Below, in pieces: positions 3 to 19,085 of a DNA stretch of 32,000 bases. How positions within the stretch are numbered: the stretch's first letter is position 1; every line of letters begins with the position of its first letter. The DNA is from Candidatus Saccharimonadota bacterium (GTDB lineage: Bacteria > Patescibacteriota > Gracilibacteria > UBA4473). The position numbers and the translations under genes are program-made. The notes under the pieces are model-generated. The model was not told where the DNA came from. It saw nothing but the letters and a program-made list of their open reading frames with translations, and did not search any database. The DNA is taken from NCBI GenBank assembly GCA_020632335.1, contig JACKFV010000001.1:540001-572000 (forward strand), written 5' to 3'.

Positions 3-3000
3 CAGAATGGCTGGCAAGATGGCATCTGCTATAGCCTGACCAGCTACGCGGATAGCGTGGAGAGTGCCCTGGCAGTGAGCGACAGTAACCCCAGCACTGC
101 TGGGGCACAGCCCTTTGTGAGTACGCTGACCAGCGAGCCGGCGCCAAGCATCGTGAAGAGAGTGGCTGGTACCATCAGCCTGGATGGCGAGAACCACGTG
201 TACTTCTTGCCCCCGTATGGGCCACAGGTGACGTATAGCATCCAGATAAAAAATACCGGGGCCATCACGGGGCGAGAGGTGATCTTTGACTCGGTGATTA
301 CTGATGACCTGAGCGATATCTTCGCTCAGCTGGAGGGGAGCTGTGGGGTGAGTGCCGGCAGCGCTGCTACGCGCATCAGTGGCATCAGCAGCCCTGGGGT
401 ACTGAGTGGGAATAGCATTGTGTGGGACTTTACGGGGGATCACCTGGCGCCGTATGCCACGCGTACGGTGAACTTTATGGTGGACTACACCGGCTGTGAC
501 GCCGCCCCCGGGCTGGAGGTAGATAACACCGCTATGCTCGGCGGGGCTAATATGCTGCCCCTGCAAGATAGCGAGGCCGTGGTGATGGATATCCCGCTGA
601 CGCCCAGTGGGAGCTTTGCCAAAGGGGACGAAGTAGTAGGGGTAGAGATACGCGCGGGGCGAGACGACAACGTACAGCCGAATGACCTGACGACGTACGG
701 AGACACCGCCACGTACTTCCTGTATACGCAGAACCCCAGTACCGTGCGGCTAGACGACATCGTGATGCTGGATATGGTGCCCGAGGGGGAGACCTTCCAG
801 AGTGCTTCTCTGCCACCACTGGCCAACGGGACGGTGTGGTACTCGACCGATACGGGCGCTACAGACCCCGCCATACCACCAGCGTATGACTACACGCAGA
901 TGGCCACCGGTACCCCGCACATGGGGTGGAGCACTACCCTGCCCAGCCCGGCCAGTAGCGTGACGTGGGTGGCCTTCTATATACCGTGTTTGAACTCGCC
1001 CTTCTTCCCCGCGCCGAGTGGGGACGTCTGCGCGATGGCGCCTACCAGCGTCCGCGGGACGATCAAAAATACGGTCGATATTCCGGCGGACCTCTGTAGT
1101 GCCTATAGCATCTTGAATACCGGGAACTTTGCCATCTATGAGGCCAGCACGAGTGTAGTGAATGCGGACACCGACGTGAGCGCGCTGGCTAGCCCTATTA
1201 CCTATACCGATGACACCGAGCAAACCCACGTGACCCCCAGCGTGCCTACCTTCAGCATTAATAGTACTTTCACTGGGCCGTCTACGCTGCCCACCAGTAC
1301 CACGGGGGTGTATACCATTACGCTCAAGAATGACGGTACGGATACCTCTGTGGCTACCACGGTGACGCTGCATATTCCGCAGTTGTTGGTCAATGGAGCG
1401 ATGGAATACCCCTCGGTATTCAACGTAACGGGAGGCACAGCCAACCTCAGCCAGCTGCCTATAGATGGCACGGTGACGGTGACGGTAGGGCCTATCCCTG
1501 CCGGAGCGACCAAGACGGTGCAGTTCAGTGTGCTGGTGCCAGAGGGTATCTTGGTCGGGACTACCCTGAACCTTTCTGCGCAGGTGAGCGCCACGGATAA
1601 TAACGCTTGTACGGTGAATCCGCATACGCTCACGCGCAGTACAGCCCTCACGGCGCTACCAGAGCTCAACGTCTATAAGACGCGGGATGAGGCGCTGATC
1701 GGCTCAGGGGATAGTATCCACTATGACATAGAGCTCTTGAATGTGGGTACGGCCTCCAGCACGCAGACGGTGGTGGTAGACCGCATACCGCAGTACACGG
1801 TGTTTGAGACGGCTTACACCACAGGTACCAATGCAAACGGTACCACCTACACTTGTAGTGGCTGTGATGTCTTCTTTAGCGATGGGAGTACCTTGCCGGT
1901 AGGCTTTGGTACGCCGATAAACCCCATCACTCCTGCGCAGGTGGTGTCGCTCTTTACCCCGGGGGTAGAGACTTCCCCGGGTGTGTGGGGGAGCCCCTTT
2001 GGCCAGCAGACGCGCTACGTAGCGTGGATGATGGACACGCCCTATGGCACGGGGGATATCTTCCCCGTGGGGGCGGCTACCACTGTGGGGCTGAGTGTGC
2101 GCAACGACCATGATGGCCCAGGGCCGCTGACTGCCGGGTCTGCGCCCGGGACGGTGATCTACAATAATCCCTTAACGGCGAGTACAGAGCTGCTGCAGGC
2201 CATTGGGAATCAGGTCAATACGACGATCCTCCCCGACCCTGGCCTGGCCATGCAGAAGCAGGCCAATACCGAGAATATCAACGCCGGGGGGAGCTTTGCC
2301 TGGACGATTACCTTCCTCAACGACTCCGCTACGCCCAACACCGCCACGACCATCAGCGATACCATGCCCTATGGGGTGACGGTCACCGGTATGGACTTTA
2401 TCTGGAATACTGCAGCGGTGGCTAATGGCATGAGCCCGAGCCCCATAGACCTGCTGACCAGCCCCTTCGTGACGCTGACGCCGAATACCGACGGTACGCT
2501 GGAGATAGCCATAGATGTCTCTCAGGGGCTGCGAGGGGGCGACCTGCTGAACCAAGAGGGTGGTACCATCACCATCAGCGTGACGGTAGACCCCAGTACT
2601 CCCACACTGACAATGCTGACCAATAACGCCGTGGGGTGCTATGAGAACGCCAGCGCCTCGTACTGTATAGACGACAGCGACACCGTGACGGTGCGTAATC
2701 CAGACCTCTTCCTCCGCAAGCAGGTAGACAGAGAAGACCCCATCAGCGGTGAGGGCATAGAGTACACCCTGCTGCTGAGCAATGAGGGGCTGTGGGAAGC
2801 GCCTGGTGTGGTAGTGCAAGATACGCTGCCAGCGGGGGTGTGTTATACCTCTGGTACTACGGCGGTGACCTACCCTGCTGGTGCCAGCCTGGGTGAGCCC
2901 GATGCGATCTATCAGGGTGATGGGGTGACGCCTGCGTCTGCTACAGACTGTGAGACGATGGATACCATCCTTGTATGGGAGACAAGCCTGCAGTACCCCG

Positions 3001-4655
3001 GCGAGGTGCCAAACACGCTGCCGGCCAATAGCCAGGATATGTTCATCACTTATGACTCCGTGGTGCAGCCGAGTGTGCCGGCGGGTACGCTGCTGACGAA
3101 CAGTGCGAGGGTAAGCACCAGCATAGCCGAGGATGAGACGTACCCGAATACCGCCTCAGCTGCGGTGCGGCCTCCGCTACCAGACCCTTATGTAGTGAAG
3201 TCTGGGCCCCTCACAACGACCGGAGGGGATAGCTATACGTATAGCATCCAGTACGGGAATAGCAGCCGTCAGCCTGGGCACGACGCCTGGGTGATGGATA
3301 CGCTGCCGGGGTATAACGGGCAGCCGGGGAGCGTCGCGGTGGAGTTTGTGAGTGCCTCTGCGCCACAGAATGAGACGCTCTACTATTACGACCAGGTGAC
3401 CCTCGGGGTAGCCCCCCTGACGCCCGCACCGGGAGTAGCGCCGAATCCATTCTTCAGCGCTGACCCTGGGTGGACGACCAGCCCTGGGGCCTACACCACG
3501 CATATTGTGTGGGTGCCCACGGGGGCTCTTCTCCCCAGTCTCTATGGCCCGGCAACGGTACAGGTGACGGTCAACGCCGTGGACCCCATTACCGGTGTGC
3601 CCTATGGGGGGAGCCAACTCTTTACTAATGAGGCCATGGTACAGACAGACAACGAGGACCCCAACGGCCAAGACGATGACGTGAGCACCCACACCGTGAA
3701 GACCCCAGGTTATGACCTCTTTATCGAGAAAGTGGGGAGTAGTGAGGGCATCTACCCCGGGCTGACCCCGGGTGCGGACCTCACCTATACCATTACCTAT
3801 GGGAATAGCGGTACTGAGCGCATCTGCGCGGTGAAGATCACCGAGGCCTTCCCGAGCCAGTTTGTGCTGGGGAGCCCGGAGAGCGACTTCACGCTGGTGA
3901 GTCTGGATGCGGGCGCGCTCCCCACAGACCTCAGCGGCACGCCTATCTTGAGCCCCGTACCGGTGAGTTTTTCCGCTGGTACCTGGTACCTGGGTGGCAG
4001 CACGGGCTATAGTAATGTGTGTCTGGAGCCGGGCTCTATGGGGAGTTTTCAGATCTTTGGTACGGTGGACCCTGCTACGCCAGACTACAGTGTGTCTGAG
4101 GAGCTGATCCTCAATAGCATCAGTATCACGCATGATGACCCGAGCGTAGGGCCCGAGGACGTGACGGAGAATAATACCGCCAGCAGTAGCACGGTGGCCT
4201 ACCGGGCGGATGTCCTCACCACCAAGACGGGGACCACCTGCGATACCGCGACTGACGACTGCGCTGTGCCAGAGGCCAGCTATGACGCGGGGCTCTACAC
4301 CGAGCTGGGCGAATACCTGCAGTACACGGTGACCTACAACAATGCGGGGAATACCGACGCTGAGGACGTGATTATCACGGATCCTATCCCAGCGGGGAGT
4401 TGCTATGTGGTGGGGAGTCTGGAAGCGGATCAGCCCGTGGGGACGGTACTGGAGTATAGCGCGGATGATATGCTCAGCTGGAGCTACACGCCCGTAGCGG
4501 ATGCCAATGGGGCGGACTGTAGCGTGACGCACTTCCGGCTGCGGTTCTTGGCTCCACTGACAGTACCGGCGACGTATGACGGGGAGGATACCTATGTGGA
4601 CTTCACGACGCAGGGGCACTATGCGGTGTATGAGGATACCTTCCCGATACACTAG
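3..4655 (+). CDS. Giant repeat-rich surface protein, 5'-truncated by the window edge (DUF11 / conserved-repeat-domain array)
   Basis: The frame is open from nt 3, with no stop upstream of the GTG at 57 used by the ORF track, so the gene begins left of the window. It ends at TAG 4653-4655. It has about nine DUF11-type signatures (x-Y-T-[IL]-x-[VY]-x-N-x-G-x(5-8)-[VI]-x-[VI]-x-D-x-[LI]-P), for example LTYTITYGNSGTERICAVKITEAFP, LQYTVTYNNAGNTDAEDVIITDPIPAGSCYV and IEYTLLLSNEGLWEAPGVVVQDTLPAGVCY. Its composition is Thr/Gly/Val/Asp-rich and extracellular in type. The overlapping antisense ORFs are Arg/His/Gly-rich junk. Confidence 0.9.
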   Translation, partial: QNGWQDGICYSLTSYADSVESALAVSDSNPSTAGAQPFVSTLTSEPAPSIVKRVAGTISLDGENHVYFLPPYGPQVTYSIQIKNTGAITGREVIFDSVITDDLSDIFAQLEGSCGVSAGSAATRISGISSPGVLSGNSIVWDFTGDHLAPYATRTVNFMVDYTGCDAAPGLEVDNTAMLGGANMLPLQDSEAVVMDIPLTPSGSFAKGDEVVGVEIRAGRDDNVQPNDLTTYGDTATYFLYTQNPSTVRLDDIVMLDMVPEGETFQSASLPPLANGTVWYSTDTGATDPAIPPAYDYTQMATGTPHMGWSTTLPSPASSVTWVAFYIPCLNSPFFPAPSGDVCAMAPTSVRGTIKNTVDIPADLCSAYSILNTGNFAIYEASTSVVNADTDVSALASPITYTDDTEQTHVTPSVPTFSINSTFTGPSTLPTSTTGVYTITLKNDGTDTSVATTVTLHIPQLLVNGAMEYPSVFNVTGGTANLSQLPIDGTVTVTVGPIPAGATKTVQFSVLVPEGILVGTTLNLSAQVSATDNNACTVNPHTLTRSTALTALPELNVYKTRDEALIGSGDSIHYDIELLNVGTASSTQTVVVDRIPQYTVFETAYTTGTNANGTTYTCSGCDVFFSDGSTLPVGFGTPINPITPAQVVSLFTPGVETSPGVWGSPFGQQTRYVAWMMDTPYGTGDIFPVGAATTVGLSVRNDHDGPGPLTAGSAPGTVIYNNPLTASTELLQAIGNQVNTTILPDPGLAMQKQANTENINAGGSFAWTITFLNDSATPNTATTISDTMPYGVTVTGMDFIWNTAAVANGMSPSPIDLLTSPFVTLTPNTDGTLEIAIDVSQGLRGGDLLNQEGGTITISVTVDPSTPTLTMLTNNAVGCYENASASYCIDDSDTVTVRNPDLFLRKQVDREDPISGEGIEYTLLLSNEGLWEAPGVVVQDTLPAGVCYTSGTTAVTYPAGASLGEPDAIYQGDGVTPASATDCETMDTILVWETSLQYPGEVPNTLPANSQDMFITYDSVVQPSVPAGTLLTNSARVSTSIAEDETYPNTASAAVRPPLPDPYVVKSGPLTTTGGDSYTYSIQYGNSSRQPGHDAWVMDTLPGYNGQPGSVAVEFVSASAPQNETLYYYDQVTLGVAPLTPAPGVAPNPFFSADPGWTTSPGAYTTHIVWVPTGALLPSLYGPATVQVTVNAVDPITGVPYGGSQLFTNEAMVQTDNEDPNGQDDDVSTHTVKTPGYDLFIEKVGSSEGIYPGLTPGADLTYTITYGNSGTERICAVKITEAFPSQFVLGSPESDFTLVSLDAGALPTDLSGTPILSPVPVSFSAGTWYLGGSTGYSNVCLEPGSMGSFQIFGTVDPATPDYSVSEELILNSISITHDDPSVGPEDVTENNTASSSTVAYRADVLTTKTGTTCDTATDDCAVPEASYDAGLYTELGEYLQYTVTYNNAGNTDAEDVIITDPIPAGSCYVVGSLEADQPVGTVLEYSADDMLSWSYTPVADANGADCSVTHFRLRFLAPLTVPATYDGEDTYVDFTTQGHYAVYEDTFPIH

Positions 4656-4667
4656 TATAAAGACGGG

Positions 4668-7600
4668 GTGATTCTCGAGATGGTCTCTGCTACCGAGCCG
4701 CCTGCCGGAGCCGTGCCGATTACCACCTGTACTGAGCTGCAGGCTATGCAGGCTGGGGTAGAGATAGACTATTACCTGGCCAATGATATCGACTGTAATG
4801 GGGTGAATTTTGTCCCCATTGGGGATGGGACGGGCTTTGCGCAGTTTCCTCCGGACTTTGATACGGCCTTTGTGGGGCGGTTCTTTGGGAATGGCTATCG
4901 GATCTCAAACCTGAGTATTAACATTAATAAGCGAGATTTCCTGGGGCTCTTCGGTGCGGTGTATGACGGGGACCTGCACGATGTTATCTTGGTGGATGTG
5001 AACGTCAGCGGTGATGGCTCGCATATAGGGTCGCTGGTGGGGTACCAGCTGGGAGGGGTGATTACTCGCTCTGGTGCCTGGGGTACGGTGAAAACCAGCG
5101 GTGTGGGAGAAAACATTGGGGGTCTGGTAGGGGTGAATATGAATGGGATGATCAAGAATAGCTACAGCCAGATGCAGGTAGATGCTCCAGAGGCTTGGAA
5201 TGTAGGGGGGCTGGCGGGGCAGGTGAATGGCCGGGTACAGCGCAGCTACTGGGAAGGGTACCAGGTAATAGGGGACTGGAACACCGGGGGGCTCATCGGG
5301 CAGAGCCACGTAGATGCAGTAGTGGATGAAACGAATACCGTGAGTGTGTACGGGATAGAAGACGTGTATGCTCGTGGGGAGGTACAGTGTAATGGCACCT
5401 ACTGTGGGGGGCTCATCGGGGAGCATATGGGCTCTCTGGTGCGGGCGTACTTTGACGGTGTGGTGGTAGGGAAGTTCTGGGTAGGGGGGCTCATTGGAGC
5501 TACCGGGATCAGCTATGACCCGAGTGCCCCGCACGAGACGCTGGTACAAGATGTCTTTGCGGTGGGCAAATTTGTGGATAGTAGTGGAGCCCCTGGGGGC
5601 ATCGTGGGGCTGAAAACCTTTGGGACGGATATCATCACCCATGCACGGTGGTATGACGCATCTGGCACGGCGGTCAGCTGTGCGGCAGGAGGGTCTACGG
5701 GCGCTGGCATCACGGACTGTAGCGTTGAGGTATCAGAGACATTCTGTCAGGACTTCAACAATGACCCCATCAACAGCTGGGATAGCACGGCGGTGTGGGA
5801 GACAAACCCCGATGGCTGCCCTTCGCTTCGTTGGCCAAACACTAGCATACTGGCGCCCTATGGTACTTATGAGACCCTTATAGAAAGTACGGGGAACCTG
5901 GTAGCATGGGATAATCTGCTCATTGTGGATGTGCTGAATGACGGCTATATGGAGCACGAAGTAGGCCGCTGGGACGGCACCGCGTGCGTGTATGACCTGG
6001 GCATAGGCCCCGCACCTGCGGGCACGGATGGCACGGGCCTGTGGGACGCCAGCGGCATAGACCAGAGCTATACAACGCTGTGTTTCTTGAGCCATTTATA
6101 TGCTGAGGAACCCGGTACTGCAGGCGGTAGCACTGGCAGCCCGTCAGACCATACCTCGAGCATTACCCCGGGGCTAGATGCCTGGATAATGAGCTATGTG
6201 ACGGACGTCGTGCCCGACTTTACCTTTGCGGTATGGGTGGCGGACCCTGGCAGCGTGACTACCATCGACAATACCGTATGTATAGAGACCAGCACACCCG
6301 AAACCACTGAGGACAATAACTGTAGTGATGAGCAGCATATTATTCGTTTGGCAGCCATCCGGACGGAGAAACAGGTAGACCTGACCGCTGCAGATGCGGG
6401 AGATACCCTCACCTACACAATAGCAGTCTGTAATGATGGCCCGTATGATGCTGAGGACATCGTGGTAGAGGACGCGTTGCCGGATAACGTGGCGTTTATC
6501 AGCAGTAGCCCTGCAGAAGCAACGCCTGGGGTAGCCCTCTGGAATGTGGGGACACTGGGGGTAGGTATGTGCGGGACGATCACCGTGACGGCGGCTATAG
6601 ACGCTGCTCCGCCAGTGCAGGCGGGGGACGCGCTGATGAACCAGGCCTGCGCCACCACCAGCACCGGGCAGCTGGACACCACAGACGACTGCGATAGCGT
6701 GACCACGCTGATAGCGCAGCTGGCCAATGTGTGGATAGAGAAGGATGGGATCCTGCCTACGGCCAGCATTGCGCAGCCCTACTACTACACCCTGACCTAT
6801 GGTAATAACGGGAATACCGACGCTGATGACGCGGTGATCCTCGACATGCTGGACAGCAACGTGAGCTTTGTGAGTGTGACGCCTGCGAGCACGAGCCCCA
6901 GTGGCCTTACGCCCAGCTGTGTGCATGATGGCTCTCCTACAGGGGGGCAGATCACCTGTACCTTCAGCGGGACGGCGAGCCTGTGTGACAGCACTAATAA
7001 CGACGCCTGCCTGCCCGATGGTGAGACCGGTACCATCGCCATAGAGGTGCTGGTGGCTGATGACACTGCGCTGATCAATAACCCGGCAGATCCAGCGCAG
7101 CCTATCCGCCTCTATAACACGGTGGAGATCAGCACTGTGACGCCTGAGGTGGACACGAATGATAACACTGACACCCATGACGTGCCCGTGGTGCTGAGCG
7201 CGCTGAGCGGCATTGAGGGGCAGGTATTTGTAGACCATAACGGCGATGTAGTGCTGGCCTTTGGGGATGATAGCCCCATTGAGGATGTGCTGGTGTACGT
7301 GTATGGGCAGGACATCTGGGGCAATATCTATGCGCCAGATCCGCTAGCATACCCGGCCTACTATGACGCCGCTATGGCGGCTATGGGGCTGCCGTATGTG
7401 AGCAGCAACCCGGCTCCGAGCAACTTCTATGCCCTGGCGCCAGACACCACAGACGGTAACGGAGAGTACAGCTTCACTGGTATGTTCCCCGGTACCTACA
7501 GCGTACAAGAGGTGCAGCCGCTGGGGTACAACTCTACGGGGTCTCGGGGAGGGGTGAATCTGGGTGCTGGTAATGACGGTACGGGTACGGTGCAGGGGGG

Positions 7601-10600
7601 CAGTGATACCGATCTCATTACGGCTATTACTCTGAGTGAAGGCGTGGTGAGCCTGGGTAATGACTTTGGGGAGGGTCTCGGGAGCCTTGGGGATCAGCTC
7701 TGGTTTGATATTGATGCCGATGGTATCTATGCCCCCAGCGCGGGTGACCTGGGGCTGAATGGCGTGACGGTGTCGCTCTATGATAGTCTGGGGACGCTCC
7801 TGGCCACTACGGTCACGGGGAGCAGCCCTCTCACGGGCACTCCGGGGTGGTATACCTTCACGGACCTGCTGCTGGATGACGGCAGTGGCACCAGGGACTA
7901 CACCGTGGTAGTGACGGACACCGCGGGTATCCTTGCCGGGATGAGCTCTACGCACACCGTGCATGGGGGCCCCACCACGGCCAATGGGACGACGGACAAC
8001 GAAGCACGTGACCCTGCGGGCTATACCCTGACGCTTAGCCCCAGTGTGACCGAACACCTCTTTGCCGACTTTGGCTATACGGGGCCGGTGGGGTTCCTGG
8101 GCGATACGGTCTTCTATGACGCTAACCAGAACGGTATCTGGGAGGATACCATCGACACCCCTCTGGCGAATATAGAGATCAGCCTCTACCGAGACAGCAA
8201 TGGGAATGGCGTGTATGACGTGCTGAGTGACACTCTGGTGGCCACCCAGCTGACGGACGCGAGCGGCTACTACCAGTTCCAGAGCCTGCTCTATGATGAC
8301 TACCTGGTGGTGGTGACAGACGGCCTGAGTGGCCTGAGTGGCGCGTGGAGCTCGACCCACGGCGCTGCAGGAGAGAACCCCACCACGAGCGTGGTGACGA
8401 ATACCGATGACCATGCACGAGATCCACAGGGTTACGCTATTACTCTGGACGCCCTGCACAGCAGTGACCAGACGGCGGACTTTGGCTACTGGGGGCCGGT
8501 GGGGAGCATTGGGGATCAGGTATTCTATGACACTGATGGCGATGGCCTCTACAATAATGATGACACCGGCGTGCCGGGCGTGACCCTGGCGCTGTATAGT
8601 GACCAGAATGGTAATGGCGTGGTAGACAGTGGTGACCTGCTGGTGAGTACCACCGTGACGGATAGCACGGGGCTGTATAGCTTTACGAATCTCTCGGTGG
8701 ATGCGGGGGCTGGTAGTGCGGCGTACATTGTGGTGGTGACGGACGACGACGCCGTGCTGCTGGGCTATAGCAGTACCGACGGAGTGAGCACTACGCCAGC
8801 TGATGGCGACGCCAAGGACCCAGCAGGGTATAGCGTGACGCTGACCCCAAGCGTGCCGGACGTGACGCTGGTGGACTTTGGGTACCAGGGGGGGAGCATT
8901 GGGGATACGCTCTTCTTCGACGCTAATGGGAATGGGGTCTATGATGCGGGCGACACCGCTGTGCCGGCGGGGGTAGAGGTGACGCTCTATGACGAGACGG
9001 GGGCGGTCTTTGCTACCACATTTACCGACGGTACCGGGGCGTATAGCTTCCCGAATCTTCCGCTGGACGACGGCGATGGCGCCACCACCTGGACGGTAGT
9101 GGTGACCGATAGCGCGGGTATCCTCGACGGTTACCCCAGTACGGACGGAGTGAGTAGCACGCCTGATGACGGTGATGCCAAGCCCCCCACGGGCTACATC
9201 GTGACGCTGGATGGCACCACACCGATGACCACTGACCACACCGCGGCGGACTTTGGCTACCTCTACCAGGCAGATATCAGCGTGGAGAAAACCGTTGACA
9301 ACGCTACAGTGCTGCCGGGCGATACCCTGATCTGGACGATAACCGTGACGAATAACGGCCCCTCACCAGCCACGGGGGTGGTCCTCTATGACCCGCTGCC
9401 AGCAGGGGTTACCTATGTGAGTGATAGCAGTGGCGGCACGGCTGCCCCGGCTGTGGTAGTGGACTATAACCCCGTGACGGGGCTGTGGACGCTCCCTGCG
9501 GCGTTGCAGAATATCAATGATACCCTGAGCCTCAGCATTACCACCACCGTGGCGGCGGGCACAGAGGGGGACACGCTCCGTAACGTAGCCGCGTTGCAGA
9601 CCCTGGACCAGACCGACACCGACCCCACAAACAACAGCGACGACGCCGAGACGACCGTGCGCGGGGGGGAGATCGGCAGCTTGCTGTGGGTGGACTACAA
9701 CGGGAATGGTATACAAGACGACGGCCCGGTAACGGTGCCCGGTATAGCCGGAGTGACGGTAGAGCTGTGGTGGGATAGTAATGAGGACGGCACGGTAGAC
9801 ACCCTGTATGGGGTGCAGGTGACGGACGCTAGCGGGGCTTATCTCTTCACTGACTTGCCCGTGCTGCAGAGTGACCTCATCACCGGAGTGACGTATGAGG
9901 TGCGTGTAGAGGGAACCAGCCTGGCAGCTGCCGGGTGGGCGATGAGCGACAGCACGCATGGCGCAAGCCCAGACCCCAGCCCCAGCAACGCGAGTGACGA
10001 CGAGCATGACAACGCCGCGCATGACCCGGTAGCCACTACGGTGGTCCTCCACCCGAGTGATGTGAGTGAGACTGATGCGGACTTTGGGTTTGTGAGTGCC
10101 TCTGCACTGGCGGCGCTGAGCGGGTATGTCTTTGAGGACCTCTCGCAGGATACCTTCTTTGACGGTACCGAGAGTGGTATAGACGACGTAGAAGTGGTGC
10201 TCTTTGGAGTAGATCTCTACGGGAATTACTACGGGCCTGATCCTTCTCATCCGCTGTATGACGGGGTGATCCTCTACCTGGGGCTGAACCCCCTGCAGTA
10301 CAACAGTGCTAGCGGACTGACCCCCGCAGAGTACTTCATCATCGACCCCGCACTGACGGGCCCCCATGGTGCAACGCCGGGCTACACTACAGACCCCAGC
10401 TGGGCCCAGGGTTACTATGGCTGGGACGGCCTGGTGCCCGGGATGTATAGCGTGTGGGAGTACCACCCTGCGGCGGAGTCTGACCCCAGCTATAGCGTGC
10501 TGGACGCCTACACCTCCACGGGGTCTCATGCCGGGAGTGCCCTGGGGACGCCTGATGACGGGGAGGGATCGTACGAGAATAACCCGGCTGATCCGAGCAA

Positions 10601-13600
10601 TCCGGCCTTCCCCTACAGTGTGGATATGATCCTCTACACCAGTCTGAGCGCGGGGGATATGAGCCCGAATAACAACTTCGGGGAGGTGCGCAGCTATGCC
10701 ATCGCGCTGGAGAAAACGGCCGATAACGTGATCGTGGCACCTGGGGAGACCATCACCTATACGCTGGTGGTAGAGAATATCGGGAGTGCGGCGCTGCCAG
10801 CGGTGGTGGTGACGGACGTCCTGGACAGCCAGGTGACCTATGTGGCTGATAGCATCACCATCGACGGGGTGCCCTTTGCAGACGCCTCTGCGGAGGTGGA
10901 CGTGAGCGGCCTGCCGACTATGGTGATCACCCTGCCCATGAGCCTCACAGGCGCTACGCCTAGCACGCCGGGGCAAACGGTAGCCATCACCTATAGCGTG
11001 ACGGCACCGACGGGCACACCGGGCATCACTGAGCTGCTGAATACCGCTAGCGCCACAGACGACACCTGCGACTGCAGCGCGAGCGATGACGAGACGGTTT
11101 ATGTGACGCCAGACAGCCAGGCCATCACCGTGAGTAAGGGGGTGACGAGCACGAGCACCGCGGGCACCCAGGTGTACCACCCTGGCGAGGGGATCGGCTA
11201 TAGCTTTACACTGGAGAATACGGGCAATAGCGTGCTGAGTAACGTAGCGCTGCGCGATATTCTCCCGGCAGAGACGGTATATGACGTGACGATGCCGGTG
11301 AGTTATAGCTCTACGGCGGGCACGGGGCCGAGCATGCCGAGCATTGTAGACCTGCAATACGACGCTCTGGCGCATGAGATCACCGGTATGGTGCCGCTGC
11401 TCTACCCTGGGGCGACCGTGACGGTCACCTACCAGATGACCGCGGCGAGCGTGACGAGCACGAGCCTGGCCACGAATATCGTTACGGTAGAGGACGACAA
11501 TAACAACGCTGCGGCTGATGACGCGACCGTGGTGGTGGATCCTCTCCCCGGTGCCGTGTATATCGAGAAGACGATTACTCCGAATGTGGCCCTGCCGGGG
11601 GACACACTGACCATCAGTTTTGTGGTGGAGAATACTGGTACGGGCGTACTGAGCGACATGGTGATTACGGATAATGACCTGGCGCTGAGTGTCTTTGACT
11701 GCGCTGCGCTGAGCGTGCCGGGGGACATTACCCTCACCGGGAGTGCGGCCAGCAAGGTAGACAGTGCGGGTATCACTTATGATGCTGGCGCTGGAGCGCT
11801 GACCATCCCCTTCGCGGGAGAGGTCATCCCGGGGGAGAGCGTTCTCATCAGCTTTGCCTGCACAGCGGCTCTGGTAGCGCAGGACACTACCGAGACCAAC
11901 ACCGTCACCGTTACGGCTCTGGCGCCTGACATGACCACCGTGAGCGACGCTGACGATGCGGATGTCACCGTACAGCTGGCTGGGGGGCGGATAGACCTCG
12001 AGAAAGTGACCGATAAAAATCTCTACAGTGTAGGAGAGACTATAGTCTTCACCCTGACTGCTACGAATACCGGCACTGAAGCCTTGACAGATGTAGTGCT
12101 GCGTGATGACCTGGCCGCGGCCAGTATGAAGGATGTGGACTGCTCTGCGCTGAGTGTACCGGCTGACGTGACCCTGGGCGGTAGTGCTGCTGGCGCGGTG
12201 ACAGACGTGAGCCTGGTAGGCAGTACCCTTACCGTCTCCGCCAGTAGCATGGCACCGGAGGACACGCTGAGCATGAGTTTCTCGTGCATTGCGGGGGTGG
12301 TGAGCGTGCCCGAGACCTTCATCAATACCGCTACGGTAGAGGCCACAGACCCTACCGACGCTACGGTAACAGACACCGCCACGGCTGATGGGAGCATCAC
12401 CCCGCTGAGTGTGGGGATAGAGAAATCCGTCTCGCCGATCGTCTACACCCCCAGTGCGACGGTACGCTACACCGTGGTGGTGACGAATGAGAACGCTAGC
12501 ACCGCGCTGGCAGGGCTGCTCTTCACCGACCCTCTGGACCCCCAGCTGACCTATGTGCCCGAGAGCGTGACGATAGACGGCCTGCCCCTGGCGGACGCGG
12601 GCCCTGAGGTAGACGTGACCACGCTGCCGACCCTCACCATAGCGTTGCCAGAGATACCTGCTGGAGCGAGCATAGTAGTGGCCTTCAGCGTGACGGCCCC
12701 GGCGGAGGTAACGGGCCTGACGCAGATAGACAATACCGCCACCGTGACCGACCCCACCAGCGGCTATAGCGTGAGCGATGATGCGCCGGTAGTGGTCTAT
12801 GACCCGAGTAATCCGCAGCTGCGCATTAGCAAATCCGCGGAGCAGACCCTGCTGCTCCCCGGCGATTCCGTGCACTATACGGTGGTGGTAGAGAACATCG
12901 GGGCTGTGAGCGTGAGCCCGCTAGAGGTGGAGGATGTCCTCCCTGCGGCCATAGCGTATGACGCGCTGCACCCCAGCAACGTGACGGTGACGCTGAGTGG
13001 CCAGGCGCCGGTGGTGGATCCGAGCGCTTATAACGCCACTACTGGCGCCATCGACTACTCCCTGGGGACCTTCCTCCCCGGGCAGGTGCTGACGATAGAC
13101 TACTACGGCATTGCGGACCCGGCCATCACCGCGCTGACCGTGGTGCCAAATACCGCCACTGCGAGTAACGGCAACGGCCTGCAGGTGAGTGATGACGAGA
13201 TAGTGGTAGTAGACCCCAGTACCGTGCCAGGGCCAGACACCCTGGAGATAGCACTGGACAAGCAGGTAGAGGGGGGTAGCCAGTATTACGCGGGGGATAC
13301 CGTGACCTATACGCTGACGGTATCTAACCCCACCGGAGTAGCACAAGACTCCCTCGTGCTGACCGATGACCTGACCGCCCTGGCGCCGGAGATGAGTTAC
13401 ATCACGGGGTCTGCGAGCATCACCGGAGGGAATACCATTAGCCTGGTGGGCACGGTACTAACGGCACAGATACCCCTGCTGGGCATAGGGGAGACCGTAA
13501 CGGTGACCTATGAGATGCTGGTGGACAGCGCCATCACACTGCCAGCGTATAAAGTTAACACCGCGGTGCTGACGGATACCGACACCGGTGACAGCACCGA

Positions 13601-15356
13601 CGACAGTGAAGTCGTGGCCGTGACGCCGTATGAGCGTACGGTGCGGCTGACCAAACTCGCTAGCCCTACAAACCCTCACCCTGGGGAGGAGGTGGAGTAT
13701 ACCCTGGAGGTAGAAAACACCGGGAACATCTCTCTGACGGGCGTGGTGGTGAGTGATAGCTTTGACTCCCATATGGGGTATGTACCGGGGACGCTCACGC
13801 TGGACGGCCTCCCACAGCCGGATCCTCTCGCACTCCCCGTGATGGAGGTGCTGCTCCTAGACCCCTTCCTGGTAGGGGAGGTGCACCAGATCACCTATAC
13901 GCTGCGGGTAGACCCAAGCATTACCGCGCCAGTGGTGGTGCCCAATACCGCCAGCGTGACCGATGACACGGGGCAGGCCACTGCTGAGGACGACGCCCGG
14001 GTGGTGGTGACCCTGGGGTCGAGTACGACTACCGGCACCACCGGTACTACTACCGGTAGCACCACCACGGGGACGACCACCGGGAGTGTGGCCACCGGGA
14101 CCACCACCGGCATGACGACGGGAACCACCACCGGCACGACTACTGGCACGACCACCACGGGGAGTACTACTGGCACTACTACTGGTACGACTACGGGTAT
14201 GACCACCACGGGCAGTACGACCACTGGTACGACTGATGGTACGACGACGCTGACCCTCACTCGGCCGCCAGCGTATATACCCGCACCGGTGCTGGAGGCC
14301 GCTCCACAGACCCCTGCACGAGAGGCAGATGACATGCGCCGCCTGGAGGAACTGCCGCAGACGGGCTATGCCGAGAACCTCTATAGTGTGTTTGATACGG
14401 TAGATCTGGCGGAGAACTTCCGCAGTATCCTCCGAGAATTTGGTGCTGAGAGTCCCTTTGCCGATATGATGGCAGACCATGTGTACTATAACCCTGCCTT
14501 TGAGCTGCAGCTGCAGGGTGCGGTGCGCTTCCCTCAGGATGACACGGGCTACTACATCGCGCAGCCAGACGCGGTGCTGGAGACCGGGCAGATGCGCGAC
14601 ATCCTTGGCTTTGCGCTGCGGGAGGACCACGCCATGCGGGAGAAACTTTATGGTACTGGTGAAGAGAGCCTGCCAGCAGACACCCCCGTGACGGTAGAGA
14701 CCGCCAGCCGGGCGATACTCGTGAATAGTGGGCTTCTCTTGCCCGAGGCTGAGAGCGGCATAGACCTGCGGGAGGATGGCGCCTACAGCCGTATGGCGAC
14801 TTACCTGCAGGTGCTGCCACTCCCACTGCAGACCGCCACCACCACCACTACGGTGACCCACGGAGAGTTCTATGCCATCCTCTACCGGGTGCTGTGGCTG
14901 CACGATACCGGCCATGAGCGTTACCCGCAGGTGATGACCTTTACGGCTCCTACAGCGGGAGTGGGGCAGACCCCCGTGACCATGAGCCTGCTGAGTAACC
15001 GGGACGCCTATATACCGGCACTGAGTAAGGGGGTCATGCTCTATGAGGACATCCGGCCCGAGTATGACGGGGTGCGGCATATCGTGGGGCATAGTAGCCA
15101 GGTACGGAGTGGACGACGCTCTCCGTATGACAGAGCGCTGGCGCCGCTCGTCGGGCACCTGCAGGTGGGAGAGAGCGTGACGCTCACCACTGACGGCGTG
15201 ACCGAGACCTACCGGGTGAGTAGCGTGCACCGCCGACACCAGGACGACGTATCCATCTTGAAAGAGCTGGACCCGAGTGTGGGCATGACCATCACCACCT
15301 GTGACTGGGACATCACCTACCGCTGGGTGTGGCATCTGCAGCCCGTGACGGACTAG
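4668..15356 (+). CDS. Giant multidomain adhesin-like protein (3,562 aa): GLUG region, SdrD-B-like Ca-binding repeats, about 11 DUF11 modules, Thr/Gly linker, LPQTG motif, C-terminal sortase-like domain
   Basis: Uninterrupted 10.7-kb ORF ending at TAG 15354-15356. The start is either GTG 4668 or ATG 4680 and cannot be resolved from sequence. The domain calls rest on motifs read in the translation (see sub-features). No N-terminal hydrophobic signal peptide is visible (N-terminus ILEMVSATEPPAGAVPITTC). Confidence 0.9.
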   Translation: MILEMVSATEPPAGAVPITTCTELQAMQAGVEIDYYLANDIDCNGVNFVPIGDGTGFAQFPPDFDTAFVGRFFGNGYRISNLSININKRDFLGLFGAVYDGDLHDVILVDVNVSGDGSHIGSLVGYQLGGVITRSGAWGTVKTSGVGENIGGLVGVNMNGMIKNSYSQMQVDAPEAWNVGGLAGQVNGRVQRSYWEGYQVIGDWNTGGLIGQSHVDAVVDETNTVSVYGIEDVYARGEVQCNGTYCGGLIGEHMGSLVRAYFDGVVVGKFWVGGLIGATGISYDPSAPHETLVQDVFAVGKFVDSSGAPGGIVGLKTFGTDIITHARWYDASGTAVSCAAGGSTGAGITDCSVEVSETFCQDFNNDPINSWDSTAVWETNPDGCPSLRWPNTSILAPYGTYETLIESTGNLVAWDNLLIVDVLNDGYMEHEVGRWDGTACVYDLGIGPAPAGTDGTGLWDASGIDQSYTTLCFLSHLYAEEPGTAGGSTGSPSDHTSSITPGLDAWIMSYVTDVVPDFTFAVWVADPGSVTTIDNTVCIETSTPETTEDNNCSDEQHIIRLAAIRTEKQVDLTAADAGDTLTYTIAVCNDGPYDAEDIVVEDALPDNVAFISSSPAEATPGVALWNVGTLGVGMCGTITVTAAIDAAPPVQAGDALMNQACATTSTGQLDTTDDCDSVTTLIAQLANVWIEKDGILPTASIAQPYYYTLTYGNNGNTDADDAVILDMLDSNVSFVSVTPASTSPSGLTPSCVHDGSPTGGQITCTFSGTASLCDSTNNDACLPDGETGTIAIEVLVADDTALINNPADPAQPIRLYNTVEISTVTPEVDTNDNTDTHDVPVVLSALSGIEGQVFVDHNGDVVLAFGDDSPIEDVLVYVYGQDIWGNIYAPDPLAYPAYYDAAMAAMGLPYVSSNPAPSNFYALAPDTTDGNGEYSFTGMFPGTYSVQEVQPLGYNSTGSRGGVNLGAGNDGTGTVQGGSDTDLITAITLSEGVVSLGNDFGEGLGSLGDQLWFDIDADGIYAPSAGDLGLNGVTVSLYDSLGTLLATTVTGSSPLTGTPGWYTFTDLLLDDGSGTRDYTVVVTDTAGILAGMSSTHTVHGGPTTANGTTDNEARDPAGYTLTLSPSVTEHLFADFGYTGPVGFLGDTVFYDANQNGIWEDTIDTPLANIEISLYRDSNGNGVYDVLSDTLVATQLTDASGYYQFQSLLYDDYLVVVTDGLSGLSGAWSSTHGAAGENPTTSVVTNTDDHARDPQGYAITLDALHSSDQTADFGYWGPVGSIGDQVFYDTDGDGLYNNDDTGVPGVTLALYSDQNGNGVVDSGDLLVSTTVTDSTGLYSFTNLSVDAGAGSAAYIVVVTDDDAVLLGYSSTDGVSTTPADGDAKDPAGYSVTLTPSVPDVTLVDFGYQGGSIGDTLFFDANGNGVYDAGDTAVPAGVEVTLYDETGAVFATTFTDGTGAYSFPNLPLDDGDGATTWTVVVTDSAGILDGYPSTDGVSSTPDDGDAKPPTGYIVTLDGTTPMTTDHTAADFGYLYQADISVEKTVDNATVLPGDTLIWTITVTNNGPSPATGVVLYDPLPAGVTYVSDSSGGTAAPAVVVDYNPVTGLWTLPAALQNINDTLSLSITTTVAAGTEGDTLRNVAALQTLDQTDTDPTNNSDDAETTVRGGEIGSLLWVDYNGNGIQDDGPVTVPGIAGVTVELWWDSNEDGTVDTLYGVQVTDASGAYLFTDLPVLQSDLITGVTYEVRVEGTSLAAAGWAMSDSTHGASPDPSPSNASDDEHDNAAHDPVATTVVLHPSDVSETDADFGFVSASALAALSGYVFEDLSQDTFFDGTESGIDDVEVVLFGVDLYGNYYGPDPSHPLYDGVILYLGLNPLQYNSASGLTPAEYFIIDPALTGPHGATPGYTTDPSWAQGYYGWDGLVPGMYSVWEYHPAAESDPSYSVLDAYTSTGSHAGSALGTPDDGEGSYENNPADPSNPAFPYSVDMILYTSLSAGDMSPNNNFGEVRSYAIALEKTADNVIVAPGETITYTLVVENIGSAALPAVVVTDVLDSQVTYVADSITIDGVPFADASAEVDVSGLPTMVITLPMSLTGATPSTPGQTVAITYSVTAPTGTPGITELLNTASATDDTCDCSASDDETVYVTPDSQAITVSKGVTSTSTAGTQVYHPGEGIGYSFTLENTGNSVLSNVALRDILPAETVYDVTMPVSYSSTAGTGPSMPSIVDLQYDALAHEITGMVPLLYPGATVTVTYQMTAASVTSTSLATNIVTVEDDNNNAAADDATVVVDPLPGAVYIEKTITPNVALPGDTLTISFVVENTGTGVLSDMVITDNDLALSVFDCAALSVPGDITLTGSAASKVDSAGITYDAGAGALTIPFAGEVIPGESVLISFACTAALVAQDTTETNTVTVTALAPDMTTVSDADDADVTVQLAGGRIDLEKVTDKNLYSVGETIVFTLTATNTGTEALTDVVLRDDLAAASMKDVDCSALSVPADVTLGGSAAGAVTDVSLVGSTLTVSASSMAPEDTLSMSFSCIAGVVSVPETFINTATVEATDPTDATVTDTATADGSITPLSVGIEKSVSPIVYTPSATVRYTVVVTNENASTALAGLLFTDPLDPQLTYVPESVTIDGLPLADAGPEVDVTTLPTLTIALPEIPAGASIVVAFSVTAPAEVTGLTQIDNTATVTDPTSGYSVSDDAPVVVYDPSNPQLRISKSAEQTLLLPGDSVHYTVVVENIGAVSVSPLEVEDVLPAAIAYDALHPSNVTVTLSGQAPVVDPSAYNATTGAIDYSLGTFLPGQVLTIDYYGIADPAITALTVVPNTATASNGNGLQVSDDEIVVVDPSTVPGPDTLEIALDKQVEGGSQYYAGDTVTYTLTVSNPTGVAQDSLVLTDDLTALAPEMSYITGSASITGGNTISLVGTVLTAQIPLLGIGETVTVTYEMLVDSAITLPAYKVNTAVLTDTDTGDSTDDSEVVAVTPYERTVRLTKLASPTNPHPGEEVEYTLEVENTGNISLTGVVVSDSFDSHMGYVPGTLTLDGLPQPDPLALPVMEVLLLDPFLVGEVHQITYTLRVDPSITAPVVVPNTASVTDDTGQATAEDDARVVVTLGSSTTTGTTGTTTGSTTTGTTTGSVATGTTTGMTTGTTTGTTTGTTTTGSTTGTTTGTTTGMTTTGSTTTGTTDGTTTLTLTRPPAYIPAPVLEAAPQTPAREADDMRRLEELPQTGYAENLYSVFDTVDLAENFRSILREFGAESPFADMMADHVYYNPAFELQLQGAVRFPQDDTGYYIAQPDAVLETGQMRDILGFALREDHAMREKLYGTGEESLPADTPVTVETASRAILVNSGLLLPEAESGIDLREDGAYSRMATYLQVLPLPLQTATTTTTVTHGEFYAILYRVLWLHDTGHERYPQVMTFTAPTAGVGQTPVTMSLLSNRDAYIPALSKGVMLYEDIRPEYDGVRHIVGHSSQVRSGRRSPYDRALAPLVGHLQVGESVTLTTDGVTETYRVSSVHRRHQDDVSILKELDPSVGMTITTCDWDITYRWVWHLQPVTD
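4716..5616 (+). other. GLUG-motif region of the giant protein
   Basis: The opening is typical of GLUG-domain surface proteins: PITTCTELQAMQ...YYLANDIDCNG..FVPIG...F.G.F.GNGYRISNLSI......LGLFG. Repeated G-G-L-[VIA]-G motifs follow: IGSLVGY, IGGLVGV, VGGLAGQ, TGGLIGQ, CGGLIGE, VGGLIGA, PGGIVGL. Confidence 0.7.
7686..9266 (+). repeat. Four tandem units of about 132 aa each, SdrD-B-like / Cna-B-like with D-x-[DN]-x-[DN]-G calcium-type loops (in-frame coding repeat)
   Basis: The units begin LGDQLWFDIDADGIY, LGDTVFYDANQNGIW, IGDQVFYDTDGDGLY and IGDTLFFDANGNGVY. Each continues with G[VI]xVxLY.D..G....T..TD..G.Y.F..L and ends with ADFGY. Related single units flank the block at about 7203-7680 and 9661-10693. 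Confidence 0.75.
14019..14249 (+). repeat. Thr/Gly-rich low-complexity linker (77 aa) encoded by an imperfect ACN-ACN-ACN-GGN microsatellite-like tract
   Basis: Translation: SSTTTGTTGTTTGSTTTGTTTGSVATGTTTGMTTGTTTGTTTGTTTTGSTTGTTTGTTTGMTTTGSTTTGTTDGTTT. It lies in frame inside the giant ORF, about 100 nt (34 codons) upstream of the LPQTG motif. Confidence 0.9.
14352..14366 (+). other. LPXTG-type sortase recognition motif (LPQTG, aa 3229-3233), internal rather than C-terminal
   Basis: The codons ctg ccg cag acg ggc were read directly. The context is RRLEELPQTGYAENL. About 330 residues follow and contain no hydrophobic membrane segment. Confidence 0.6.
14982..15353 (+). other. Sortase-like catalytic domain at the C-terminus of the giant protein
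   Basis: The motif order and spacing match the sortase fold: AYIPALSKGVMLYED, then IVGHS (His3475, nt 15090-15092), then L.VGE.VTLTT.G.TETYRV, then D.SIL, then MTITTC (Cys3545, nt 15300-15302), then YRWVWHL (Arg3552). Compare S. aureus SrtA: IAGHT, LTLITC and a downstream Arg. This is motif-level evidence only. Confidence 0.65.
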
Positions 15357-15396
15357 CTGATAGTCAAGAGCGTCCTGCACTCTGACACACGCCCCC

Positions 15397-15424
15397 TTGT
15401 GCTTTGCCACCGGGGGGCTAGTGT
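15397..15424 (+). promoter_or_regulatory. Candidate promoter giving a leaderless PLD mRNA (TTGTGC-N16-TAGTGT, then 6 nt, then ATG)
   Basis: The TAGTGT hexamer at 15419-15424 ends exactly 6 nt before ATG 15431. The -35 match is weak. The same geometry recurs at other genes in the window. Confidence 0.3.
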
Positions 15425-15430: not shown

Positions 15431-16621
15431 ATGCGTGGTATACGGTCTCTTGGCGTGCGGGGGCTCCAGCTGCTGGTGATGGTGGGTCTGGTGCTGCTGC
15501 TGGGGCGGTATATGCTGGGGGGAGATACGGGGCAAGGGGCTCTGCATGAGGCGCTGCCGGGTGGCTCCTCTACGCAGACAGGGCCCTTTACGGGGGAGCT
15601 CTTTTTTAATAATCAGCTGGAGAGCACGGTGATGACCCGTGCGATCTTGCCGCTCATAGAGCAGGCGCAGCAGAGCATAGCGGTGGCGATGTATTCCTTT
15701 ACCTATCCGCAGCTGCACACGGCGCTGAATGCCGCGGTGGCACGGGGGGTTTCCGTTACCCTGGTGCTGGACCCAAGCCGCCAGGAGGCCTTTGACGCGA
15801 TGACGGCAGCGTATGGTGCGGCGGCGTACCGGGTGGTGAGTGCACACCAGGAGACCGAGCGGTCGCTCATGCACCAGAAGTTCTGGATTTTTGACGGCGT
15901 GACGCTGGCCTTTGGGTCTTGGAATGCAACGCTGTGGCAGCAGAGCTATGACCCGAGTATGCTGCTGGTGACGCGTTATCGTCCGCTTGTAGAGGCGCTG
16001 CAGATAGAATTTACCCGCCTGGCGGAGGGGCAGGGTACGTACCGAAAGCTGCGGCAGACGGGTTATCAGCCCCTGCAGGGCGTGTGGCAGACGGAAGACG
16101 GAGACCATGTGGAGCTCTGGCTGAGCCCTGGGGTACCGGGTAATAGCCTGCAGCAGCGGGTGCTGGAGCTGCTGCGTAGTGCTGCGCAGCGCATAGATAT
16201 AGCCGTCTGGCGGCTGAACGACCGTGAGGTCGCGGCTGAGATAGTGCGCGCAGCGGAGCGAGGGGTAACGGTGCGCATCCTAGTAGATGACCACTATGCG
16301 GAGGACAGCGACAGCGTGGTAGACGGGATAGCGCGGCGGCATCACTCGAACATCATGGTGCATACGGACGCGCCGCGGACCCCCCGGGTGCAGCGGCTGG
16401 GGGAGGTGCCGGCGGACTTTAACCCGTATATCCACCAGCATACGATCATGGTGGATGGGGAGACTGCGCTGAGCGGGACGAATAATTGGTCGTTTGCGGG
16501 CTACTACCGGAATGACGAGAGCGCCATCCTCAGCGATGCGCCGTGGTGGGTGGCGGGGCTGGGGCAGTCGTTTGACCAGCTCTGGGAGGAGAGCGCGCCC
16601 CTGACACTGACCGGGGAGTGA
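15431..16621 (+). CDS. Membrane-anchored phospholipase D (PLD/HKD) superfamily protein
   Basis: N-terminal anchor MRGIRSLGVRGLQLLVMVGLVLLLG. The first HKD motif is canonical: HQKFWIFDGVTLAFGSWN (15872-15925). The second motif, HQHTIMVDGETALSGTNN (16433-16486), has His in place of the Lys. The two-lobe layout is typical of PLD and cardiolipin-synthase-like enzymes. Confidence 0.8.
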   Translation: MRGIRSLGVRGLQLLVMVGLVLLLGRYMLGGDTGQGALHEALPGGSSTQTGPFTGELFFNNQLESTVMTRAILPLIEQAQQSIAVAMYSFTYPQLHTALNAAVARGVSVTLVLDPSRQEAFDAMTAAYGAAAYRVVSAHQETERSLMHQKFWIFDGVTLAFGSWNATLWQQSYDPSMLLVTRYRPLVEALQIEFTRLAEGQGTYRKLRQTGYQPLQGVWQTEDGDHVELWLSPGVPGNSLQQRVLELLRSAAQRIDIAVWRLNDREVAAEIVRAAERGVTVRILVDDHYAEDSDSVVDGIARRHHSNIMVHTDAPRTPRVQRLGEVPADFNPYIHQHTIMVDGETALSGTNNWSFAGYYRNDESAILSDAPWWVAGLGQSFDQLWEESAPLTLTGE

Positions 16622-16980: not shown

Positions 16981-18468
<1,488 letters not shown>

Positions 18469-18653
18469 AGAGGCAAGCATGTACGTCACCGGGAGATTTT
18501 TCTCCTTTTCTTTAGACACGAACGCTCCTTCCTTTTGGTTTGTGAAGCAGCGGGAATCAACATGCGGTCGCTACGCTCGAGATTGAGGAGGTCTTTTTTA
18601 GTACCTTGAGTTTTTGAGATATTGCATTCTTTATGGTATTTCGCTAAATCAGC

Positions 18654-18681
18654 TTGACACTCCGGGGCTGATTCTTATCTT
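18654..18681 (+). promoter_or_regulatory. Candidate promoter of the ribosomal-protein cluster (TTGACA-N16-TATCTT)
   Basis: Perfect -35 hexamer. An AT-rich, UP-like tract lies upstream (tttttgagatattgcattctttatggtatttcgctaaatc). The -10 hexamer ends 25 nt before the rplN ATG. Confidence 0.45.
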
Positions 18682-18706
18682 CCTCTCGCTCGAACCCAGA
18701 GAAATT

Positions 18707-19075: not shown

Positions 19076-19085
19076 CTCTTACCCG

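Follow-up and report, generated by a model that had tools for sequence, protein, structure and literature searches.

Sortases, as the textbooks present them, are membrane-anchored enzymes that act in trans and turn over many times. C-terminal self-processing is known from Hedgehog, whose C-terminal domain (Hint fold) forms a thioester at the junction with the N-terminal passenger, hands that passenger over to an acceptor, and is itself set free, all in one turnover. By engineering, a sortase has also been placed on its own substrate: the STEPL construct (protein-LPETG-linker-SrtA-His tag) cuts the junction that it carries, joins the passenger to a Gly nucleophile supplied from outside, and remains on the resin (PMC11561820). 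Here we analyzed a 32,000-nucleotide stretch of DNA (the window; positions 540,001 to 572,000 of contig JACKFV010000001.1) in which a giant open reading frame, ORF2, encodes a fibrillar adhesin with an LPQTG motif, a region related to S-layer homology (SLH) repeats, and a sortase in one polypeptide. The last ~345 amino acids (aa) of ORF2 probably make up a self-contained cassette for surface anchoring, which is found again in Peregrinibacteria-group bacteria of the Candidate Phyla Radiation (CPR), an anchoring module in which a wall-tethered sortase would process the PxTG junction of its own or a sibling chain; we put the probability of this reading at roughly 0.55.

To our knowledge, SLH repeats have not been described as the tether of a sortase or as a region between an LPXTG motif and an enzyme. 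A search of the full-text literature found no description of a natural sortase that is fused to its own substrate or tethered by SLH repeats, in keeping with an earlier reading of the same DNA, made without database searches (the sequence-only reading), whose author knew of no described system of this kind. Of related features, the genome paper on Peribacteria names large exported proteins, S-layer proteins, and "a sortase A" and no more (PMC4736985), and a survey of CPR protein families reports that sortases are common in CPR bacteria and nothing further (PMC6744442).

ORF2 is uninterrupted over 3,562 aa and ends with a TAG stop codon. Its C-terminal part consists, in order, of a 77-aa Thr/Gly linker, a single LPQTG, ~190 aa without a hydrophobic segment, and the sortase domain; the coordinates assigned to the linker, LPQTG, His3475, Cys3545, and Arg3552 in the sequence-only reading were all exact upon direct reading of ORF2 (Table 1). 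The LPQTG lies 35 aa past the linker but 329 residues from the C terminus, which reads ...WHLQPVTD and has no short positively charged tail. Past aa 3100 no membrane-spanning segment was detected, the highest 19-residue Kyte-Doolittle mean being 1.02, and the claim that no hydrophobic segment separates LPQTG from the sortase was thereby borne out. Of the in-frame ATG, GTG, and TTG codons between 14367 and 14982 (n = 20), none is followed by a hydrophobic leader. Because hydropathy is low and no internal start has a leader, neither a hidden membrane anchor nor a separate sortase gene is present here. The N-terminal membrane anchor or signal anchor usual in sortases was not found in the ORF2 enzyme, and the Pfam profile Gram_pos_anchor (PF00746), named in the sequence-only reading, had no match to the ORF2 protein at E ≤ 1. 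Antisense ORFs over the cassette (13857-15410 and others) were discounted, as long antisense ORFs are expected in coding DNA of 60% GC.

Relatives of the cassette were found by an exhaustive HMMER scan of 1.84 billion protein cluster representatives, which returned 37 matches; 1 was false, 2 were ordinary small sortases, and the rest carried the module. When the C-terminal sequence was the sole query, a word-indexed search for homologues gave no match, the same kind of search with the module alignment recovered one relative (P0018) and generic SLH proteins alone, and a scan of a genome collection with the single protein as the query found no relative. The large relatives reach 4,811 aa, and the module stands at the extreme C terminus in most of them, with short or longer tails past it in P0001 and P0028. 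Where their organisms are named, these are metagenome-assembled genomes of Candidatus Peregrinibacteria, Peribacteria, or "Gracilibacteria," and the product names are merely "S-layer homology domain-containing," "DUF11 domain-containing," or "DUF2341 domain-containing." Full-length relatives carry N-terminal signal peptides, and their passengers are mutually unrelated (CLIPPER stalks, Cys-rich repeats, beta-helix/GEVED, DUF4114, and others). The order of the cassette is common to the fusion proteins: an extended PxTG motif, SLH repeats, and the sortase. Co-conservation of the motif and a C-terminal sortase, which the sequence-only reading had proposed to look for in giant proteins, was in this way found among 25 fusions.

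Some individual relatives have further features at their ends. P0028 (2,194 aa) has ~120 extra residues past the sortase, ending, alone among the homologues, in a transmembrane helix and a KKHKE tail, and so would represent a classical sorting-signal end displaced behind the enzyme. The C termini of P0008 and P0030 consist of amphipathic "KASLFD" repeats, and P0027 has an N-terminal transmembrane anchor and ~90 aa, followed by LPLTG-SLH-sortase.

The C-terminal domain of ORF2 matched Pfam Sortase (PF04203) with 31.8 bits when the C-terminal fragment was searched and with 28.6 bits in the full protein, both above the gathering cutoff of 26.6, and the same profile matched 22 of the 25 family modules (best E value, 1.8e-14). 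A single-sequence AlphaFold model was uninformative (predicted local distance difference test score [pLDDT], 37.6), and the family alignment was required; with the 25 aligned sequences, AlphaFold2 gave a model with a pLDDT of 87.5 and a predicted template-modeling score of 0.86, with strands over aa 3423 to 3559. When this model was compared with the PDB by Foldseek, the 50 best matches were all sortases (classes A, C, and D), with a probability of 1.00, E values down to 1e-8, and target-normalized template-modeling scores of 0.5 to 0.75. At the sequence level, phmmer against PDB sequences gave a marginal sortase match alone (2ln7; E value, 0.41). The NCBIfam class D, SrtD, and generic sortase models scored 14 to 16 bits against cutoffs of 39 to 165, and the domain could be assigned to no described class (A to F); since no curated class-level model came near its cutoff, it belongs to a divergent branch of the sortase superfamily. 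Together, the profile hidden Markov model, the predicted fold, and the His-Cys-Arg triad indicate that the C-terminal domain of ORF2 is a sortase, and the part that the sequence-only reading had called sortase-like proved to be real by its profile match, by its predicted structure, and by its catalytic residues.

The linker that precedes the motif contains 49 Thr, 17 Gly, and 6 Ser residues among its 77 aa, and its coding DNA is made of imperfect repeats of 12 to 51 nucleotides (nt). In many homologues, too, the 100 aa that end 30 aa before the motif are rich in S, T, G, P, and N (fraction, 0.3 to 0.79), and the Thr/Gly spacer is consistent, by analogy, with the wall-spanning regions of LPXTG proteins. 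One LPxTG in a Thr/Gly-rich protein of 3,562 aa is weak evidence when taken alone: given the composition of ORF2, 0.21 LPxTG per protein is expected by chance and at least one appears in 19% of shuffles, although the expectation for any given 60-aa stretch is only 0.004. The LPQTG of ORF2 rises above chance because it sits directly behind the linker and is conserved in homologues. Upon alignment of the 25 fusion proteins, the junction followed the consensus R-x2-[DN]-[DN]-Φ-x5-Φ-P-x-T-G (Φ, hydrophobic or aromatic), with R in 19 of the 25, [DN] in 21 and 23 at the two successive positions, Φ in 25 and again in 25, P in 25, T in 23, and G in 25; as the residue just ahead of Pro, 14 sequences have Ile, 5 have Leu, and 3 have Phe. 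The strict motif is single copy in 20 of these proteins, and its junction copy, wherever present, lies 192 to 254 aa upstream of the catalytic His. The ΦPxTG motif is, in this alignment, conserved on a par with the catalytic His, Cys, and Arg. LPQTG, which the sequence-only reading took for a sortase substrate motif, is not accidental; the consensus of the family is rather IPxTG with an extended upstream element.

An artifact, in the form of a chance LPQTG or of a separate sortase gene joined to the adhesin by a frameshift or misassembly, would have drawn on the 19% of shuffles that contain an LPxTG, but it is refuted by the comparative data and retains next to no probability. The collinear cassette is shared by ~25 independent proteins that come from different samples and have the motif in a single aligned column, and ORF2 itself has no stop, no internal start with a leader, and an even GC content across the cassette region. 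A chance pentapeptide was ruled out by conservation at that family column, and a hidden sortase gene was ruled out by the continuous ORF, the leaderless internal starts, and the conserved architecture; the frameshift or assembly join that could have overturned the sequence-only reading thus fails on the recurrence of one collinear architecture in unrelated contigs.

Between the motif and the enzyme lies an acidic region (29 D+E versus 12 K+R after LPQTG) in which the sequence-only reading had noted SLH-like stretches. Pfam SLH (PF00395) had no match in the window protein at E ≤ 1, but it matched 15 of the 25 aligned family modules (best E value, 1.6e-20), and up to three SLH repeats are present in the relatives. 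Relative to the family, the window copy has an extra insertion of ~20 aa right after LPQTG and lacks the first half of SLH repeat 2. Past the insertion the region is modeled as helical, with a pLDDT of ~86 to 96 in most 10-residue blocks and of 51 and 66 in two blocks. The window copy can be called SLH-like because the aligned region in its homologues matches SLH; to that extent the earlier observation stood, while a Pfam-level SLH domain in the window copy did not. The cassette enzyme seems best described as an SLH-tethered sortase. Elsewhere in the window, an 832-aa secreted protein (23104-25602, plus strand) has two SLH repeats, an RlpA-like DPBB lytic-transglycosylase domain, and a CAP domain, and its predicted domains show that SLH-type wall tethering is likely used elsewhere in the source organism.

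Stand-alone relatives of the enzyme bear on the relation between motif and sortase. P0009, P0023, P0026, and P0029 (350 to 366 aa) are SLH-sortases directly preceded by a signal peptide; this leader ends at the aligned column of the motif, and both the motif and the upstream element are absent. Because the stand-alone enzymes do without it, the motif is not part of the enzyme and is present only where a passenger is attached. The mature stand-alone enzyme corresponds, as judged from the alignment, to the fragment that cleavage between Thr and Gly would release. In one assembly, GCA_020631075.1, four fusions (P0001, P0016, P0013, and P0019) accompany one stand-alone enzyme, P0026; the fusions, of 4,811, 2,725, 1,698, and 788 aa, lie at four separate loci (among L001 and L005 to L008) and have different passengers, and P0026 adjoins housekeeping genes, near hisS and recR. 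From a substrate-borne, low-turnover reaction one would expect just such a count, an enzyme for each substrate. Moreover, P0018, the sole member without the catalytic Cys (replaced in FTS), has also lost the motif Thr (FPQLG). The stand-alone forms, the count within one genome, and the joint loss in P0018 thus lend indirect support to a functional link between motif and enzyme.

In the mechanism that we propose, the protein would be exported and its C-terminal end held in the cell wall by the SLH repeats. Cys3545 would then attack the Thr3232-Gly3233 bond, either in its own chain or in a neighboring copy, and the adhesin would become thioester linked to the enzyme before being passed to an amine acceptor of the envelope, most plausibly a peptidoglycan stem peptide; the Gly-SLH-sortase fragment would stay noncovalently bound in the wall. 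Self-processing chemistry is feasible in this topology, since STEPL fusions of the same order cleave their own junction; from the sequences we infer the cleavage itself, its intramolecular single-turnover character, and the acceptor. A more specific form of the proposal, a natural single-turnover sortase acting in cis as part of a portable self-anchoring PxTG-SLH-sortase module, in the wall and on an acceptor other than lipid II, is put forward tentatively, its chances lying slightly on the unfavorable side of even. The sequence-only reading had also offered transfer to a lysine of the neighboring giant protein, and nothing supports this.

Several points weigh against the self-anchoring reading. 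Known sortases act at the membrane on lipid II, and a membrane-free enzyme would have no established acceptor. The joint loss of Cys and Thr in P0018 is a single case. The TRAE-type positions, those by which SLH repeats bind pyruvylated wall polymer, read ETGQ, TVET, and THGE in the window copy, with no Pfam SLH match, and wall binding by this particular protein is uncertain on that sequence. ORF2 also lacks an N-terminal signal peptide and is in frame with a preceding ORF (ORF1) that ends in a TAG codon, so that the window copy may belong to a larger gene or may be disabled. Finally, stand-alone SLH-sortases of the same genomes could cut the motifs in trans, and because they coexist with the fusions, fusion is no proof of cis action or of single turnover.

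The last point leads to what we rank as the main rival, that a separate stand-alone SLH-sortase, a housekeeping enzyme, alone cuts ΦPxTG and that the fused SLH-sortase is mainly a retention element, in the role that the hydrophobic helix and basic tail have in classical sorting signals, and/or has other substrates once released. Classical sortases work in trans with many turnovers, P0026 shares an assembly with four fusions while P0023 lies next to dnaA in another assembly, and P0028 retains a terminal transmembrane helix and KKHKE tail past its sortase domain, all of which would suit such an arrangement. It leaves unexplained, however, why the His-Cys-Arg triad is intact in 24 of the 25 fused copies and why four passengers in one genome each have a complete sortase when SLH repeats would be enough for retention. 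We regard it as unlikely, though still to be reckoned with.

Two lesser alternatives were also considered. The conserved DDΦ...ΦPxTG segment could be an autoinhibitory lid or pseudo-substrate held in the active site, comparable to the lid of class C pilin sortases, the enzyme remaining on the adhesin and ligating other proteins or wall components to it. The lid motif of class C sortases is DP[FWY], which the D-[DN]-aromatic/hydrophobic signature of the family recalls. In the model, the segment just before the motif is predicted to be ordered (block means of pLDDT, 94 at aa 3219 to 3228 and 70 at aa 3229 to 3238), and among the best Foldseek matches are class C-type sortases that bear a lid and align over long stretches (5k9a, 6bwe, and 3g69); these long alignments, however, have root mean square deviations of 10 to 12 Å and are unreliable. 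A lid would have no need for an exact PxTG with invariant Pro, Thr, and Gly, and the whole segment is absent from the stand-alone enzymes and therefore is not an integral regulatory part of the enzyme. This possibility appears rather improbable. The other alternative is self-release, in which the sortase would hydrolyze its own junction with water as the acceptor and thereby shed the adhesin or free the enzyme from a carrier, such as the membrane anchor of P0027. Sortases are established to hydrolyze LPXTG slowly when no nucleophile is present, the "passenger" of P0027 is merely a tether, and the cassette has no membrane anchor and no known acceptor. Against this, a protease would be simpler for such a job than a transpeptidase, and a Thr/Gly spacer together with an isopeptide-stabilized stalk is a hallmark of attached, load-bearing proteins (PMC12617251). 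We consider self-release very improbable. The reading in which the cassette anchors its own or a sibling chain is the one retained here.

The organization of the rest of ORF2 fits that of a fibrillar adhesin. A search with its head gave 271 homologues at E ≤ 1e-5, with PF07581 (GLUG) in nearly all of the best 120 of the 271; the head is thereby of a common GLUG type. In the stalk, Pfam found DUF11 (1.3e-91; 10 stretches), SdrD_B (8.8e-56; 6 stretches), and DUF7507 (1.1e-31; 9 stretches). DUF11 has recently been shown to be an isopeptide-bond domain of the stalk in fibrillar adhesins (PMC12617251).

ORF1, which contains DUF11, DUF7619, and DUF7507 and has no C-terminal anchor, lies immediately upstream in the same frame as ORF2, separated from it by a single TAG (4653-4655) and a few codons. 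Its aa 2 to 743 are 29 to 35% identical to aa 298 to 1185 of P0028 (best segment, 7e-52), and P0028 is a single polypeptide in which an ORF1-like N-terminal part is followed by an IPETG-SLH-sortase end. ORF1 and ORF2 may be one gene of >5,100 codons with a nonsense codon that is real, is read through, or stems from a consensus error; alternatively, they may be coupled but separate genes, two in number. The mechanical start of ORF2 is GTG 4668, and the probable start is ATG 4680, which has a strong Shine-Dalgarno-like sequence 7 nt upstream. This question leaves the family-level finding untouched; it does affect the function of the window copy. A conserved pair of an upstream giant protein and a fusion was considered and rejected, as the upstream gene in L001 (1,484 aa) encodes an unrelated multi-pass membrane protein.

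Table 1. Positions, in the window, of ORF1, ORF2, and the parts of ORF2
Feature	Position	Strand	Basis
ORF1, large CLIPPER/DUF11 surface protein (C-terminal ≥1,550 aa), running off the left edge of the window	3..4655	+	Translation, Pfam
Shine-Dalgarno-like GGGGTGAT (4665-4672), 7 nt upstream of ATG 4680	4665..4682	+	Direct reading
ORF2, fibrillar adhesin with C-terminal cassette	4668..15356	+	Translation, Pfam
GLUG (beta-helix) type head domain, N-terminal, approximate boundaries	4710..5900	+	Homologues with PF07581
Stalk of tandem CLIPPER (DUF11), CLIPPER_2 (DUF7507), DUF7619, SdrD_B, and SpaA-like domains, approximate boundaries	6375..14018	+	Pfam
Thr/Gly/Ser low-complexity linker, 77 aa (aa 3118-3194), candidate wall-spanning spacer	14019..14249	+	Composition
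Extended junction motif R3218-E-A-D-D-M-R-R-L-E-E-L-P-Q-T-G3233	14319..14366	+	Family column counts
LPQTG, aa 3229-3233, putative sortase cleavage site Thr3232|Gly3233	14352..14366	+	Sole LPxTG of ORF2
Degenerate SLH-repeat region, aa 3234-3420, acidic, no transmembrane segment	14367..14927	+	Alignment with SLH repeats of homologues
Sortase catalytic domain, aa 3423-3559 (Pfam match, aa 3450-3556)	14934..15344	+	PF04203, model
Catalytic His3475 in IVGHS	15090..15092	+	His in 25/25 of family
Catalytic Cys3545 in TITTC	15300..15302	+	Cys in 24/25 of family; exception, P0018
Catalytic Arg3552 in YRWVW	15321..15323	+	Arg in 25/25 of family

The remainder of the window gives an indication of its source. 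A complete bacterial 16S rRNA gene (16981-18466, plus strand; 1448.8 bits) lies ~150 nt upstream of the rplN ORF, and no 23S, 5S, or tRNA genes were found in the window; the 16S gene appears to be unlinked and to stand where the S10/spc ribosomal-protein cluster would have its upstream half. The ribosomal-protein run that follows (18614-23048, plus strand) is rplN-rplX-rplE-rpsN(type Z)-rpsH-rplF-rplR-rpsE-rplO, with no L30 gene between rpsE (ending at 22612) and rplO (starting at 22629) and no secY after rplO. As far as is known, L30 is absent in CPR bacteria, and the lone 16S gene and the L30-less cluster are consistent with a CPR genome, the source being an uncultivated Peregrinibacteria-like bacterium. 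The ribosomal protein S5 ORF (21404-22612, plus strand) encodes up to 402 aa, far above the usual length, with an N-terminal extension of acidic/basic character and, at the C terminus, an extension matching HHH_5 and DUF4332 (helix-hairpin-helix). The gene that lies next downstream of the adhesin (15431-16621, plus strand) encodes a membrane-anchored protein with two PLD-like (HKD) domains; no conserved counterpart of it was found beside the homologue P0001 (L001). At 28220-29437 (plus strand), a 405-aa ORF with an extreme content of Pro, Ala, Lys, and Glu (PAPKP/PEK repeats) and a C-terminal coiled-coil-like segment may encode a low-complexity envelope or scaffold protein.

If the proposed reading is correct, sorting in these organisms would be organized as a self-contained, substrate-borne reaction in the wall, and each surface protein of episymbiotic-type CPR bacteria would bring its own transpeptidase. 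In such a system, bacteria would have a counterpart of Hedgehog-type autoprocessing, and engineered sortase fusions would have a precedent in nature. The cassette offers a testable handle on how giant adhesins are mounted in uncultivated, host-dependent CPR bacteria, and it flags for annotation proteins that are now labeled only "SLH domain-containing" or "DUF11 domain-containing." For engineering, it could yield compact self-ligating sortase modules already optimized in nature, and IPxTG with the upstream DDΦ element may give a new specificity.

The cassette shares with classical LPXTG sorting, as in Staphylococcus aureus (SrtA/protein A) and Streptococcus pyogenes (SrtA), the fold and the His-Cys-Arg triad of the enzyme, and in both, repeat-rich adhesins with isopeptide-type stalks carry toward their C-terminal end a low-complexity spacer and, behind it, a ΦPxTG motif. 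It differs from classical sorting in that one polypeptide comprises both enzyme and substrate, the enzyme lacks an N-terminal membrane anchor, SLH repeats and the enzyme rather than a hydrophobic helix and basic tail lie past the motif, and the consensus is IPxTG with a conserved upstream R-x2-DD-Φ element. Class C pilin sortases are among the best structural matches and have an N-terminal acidic/aromatic segment, ordered against the catalytic domain, that the element upstream of the cassette motif resembles; unlike the cassette, they are membrane anchored, their trans substrates are pilins that have a pilin-motif lysine, and their lid contains no LPXTG. Tandem SLH repeats serve as a noncovalent wall tether in the surface proteins Sap and EA1 of Bacillus anthracis. 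With Hedgehog autoprocessing and other C-terminal self-processing modules, the proposed cassette would share the logic, but the two are unrelated in fold (Hint versus sortase barrel) and in chemistry, and their likeness is one of function only. STEPL has the same order of parts (passenger, motif, spacer, sortase, and handle), and the SLH repeats of the cassette would take the role of the handle, but STEPL is man-made, serves for ligation in one step, and is triggered by Ca2+ and peptide, whereas the cassette evolved. The parts of the cassette are all known; their arrangement and the mode of action that it implies are new.

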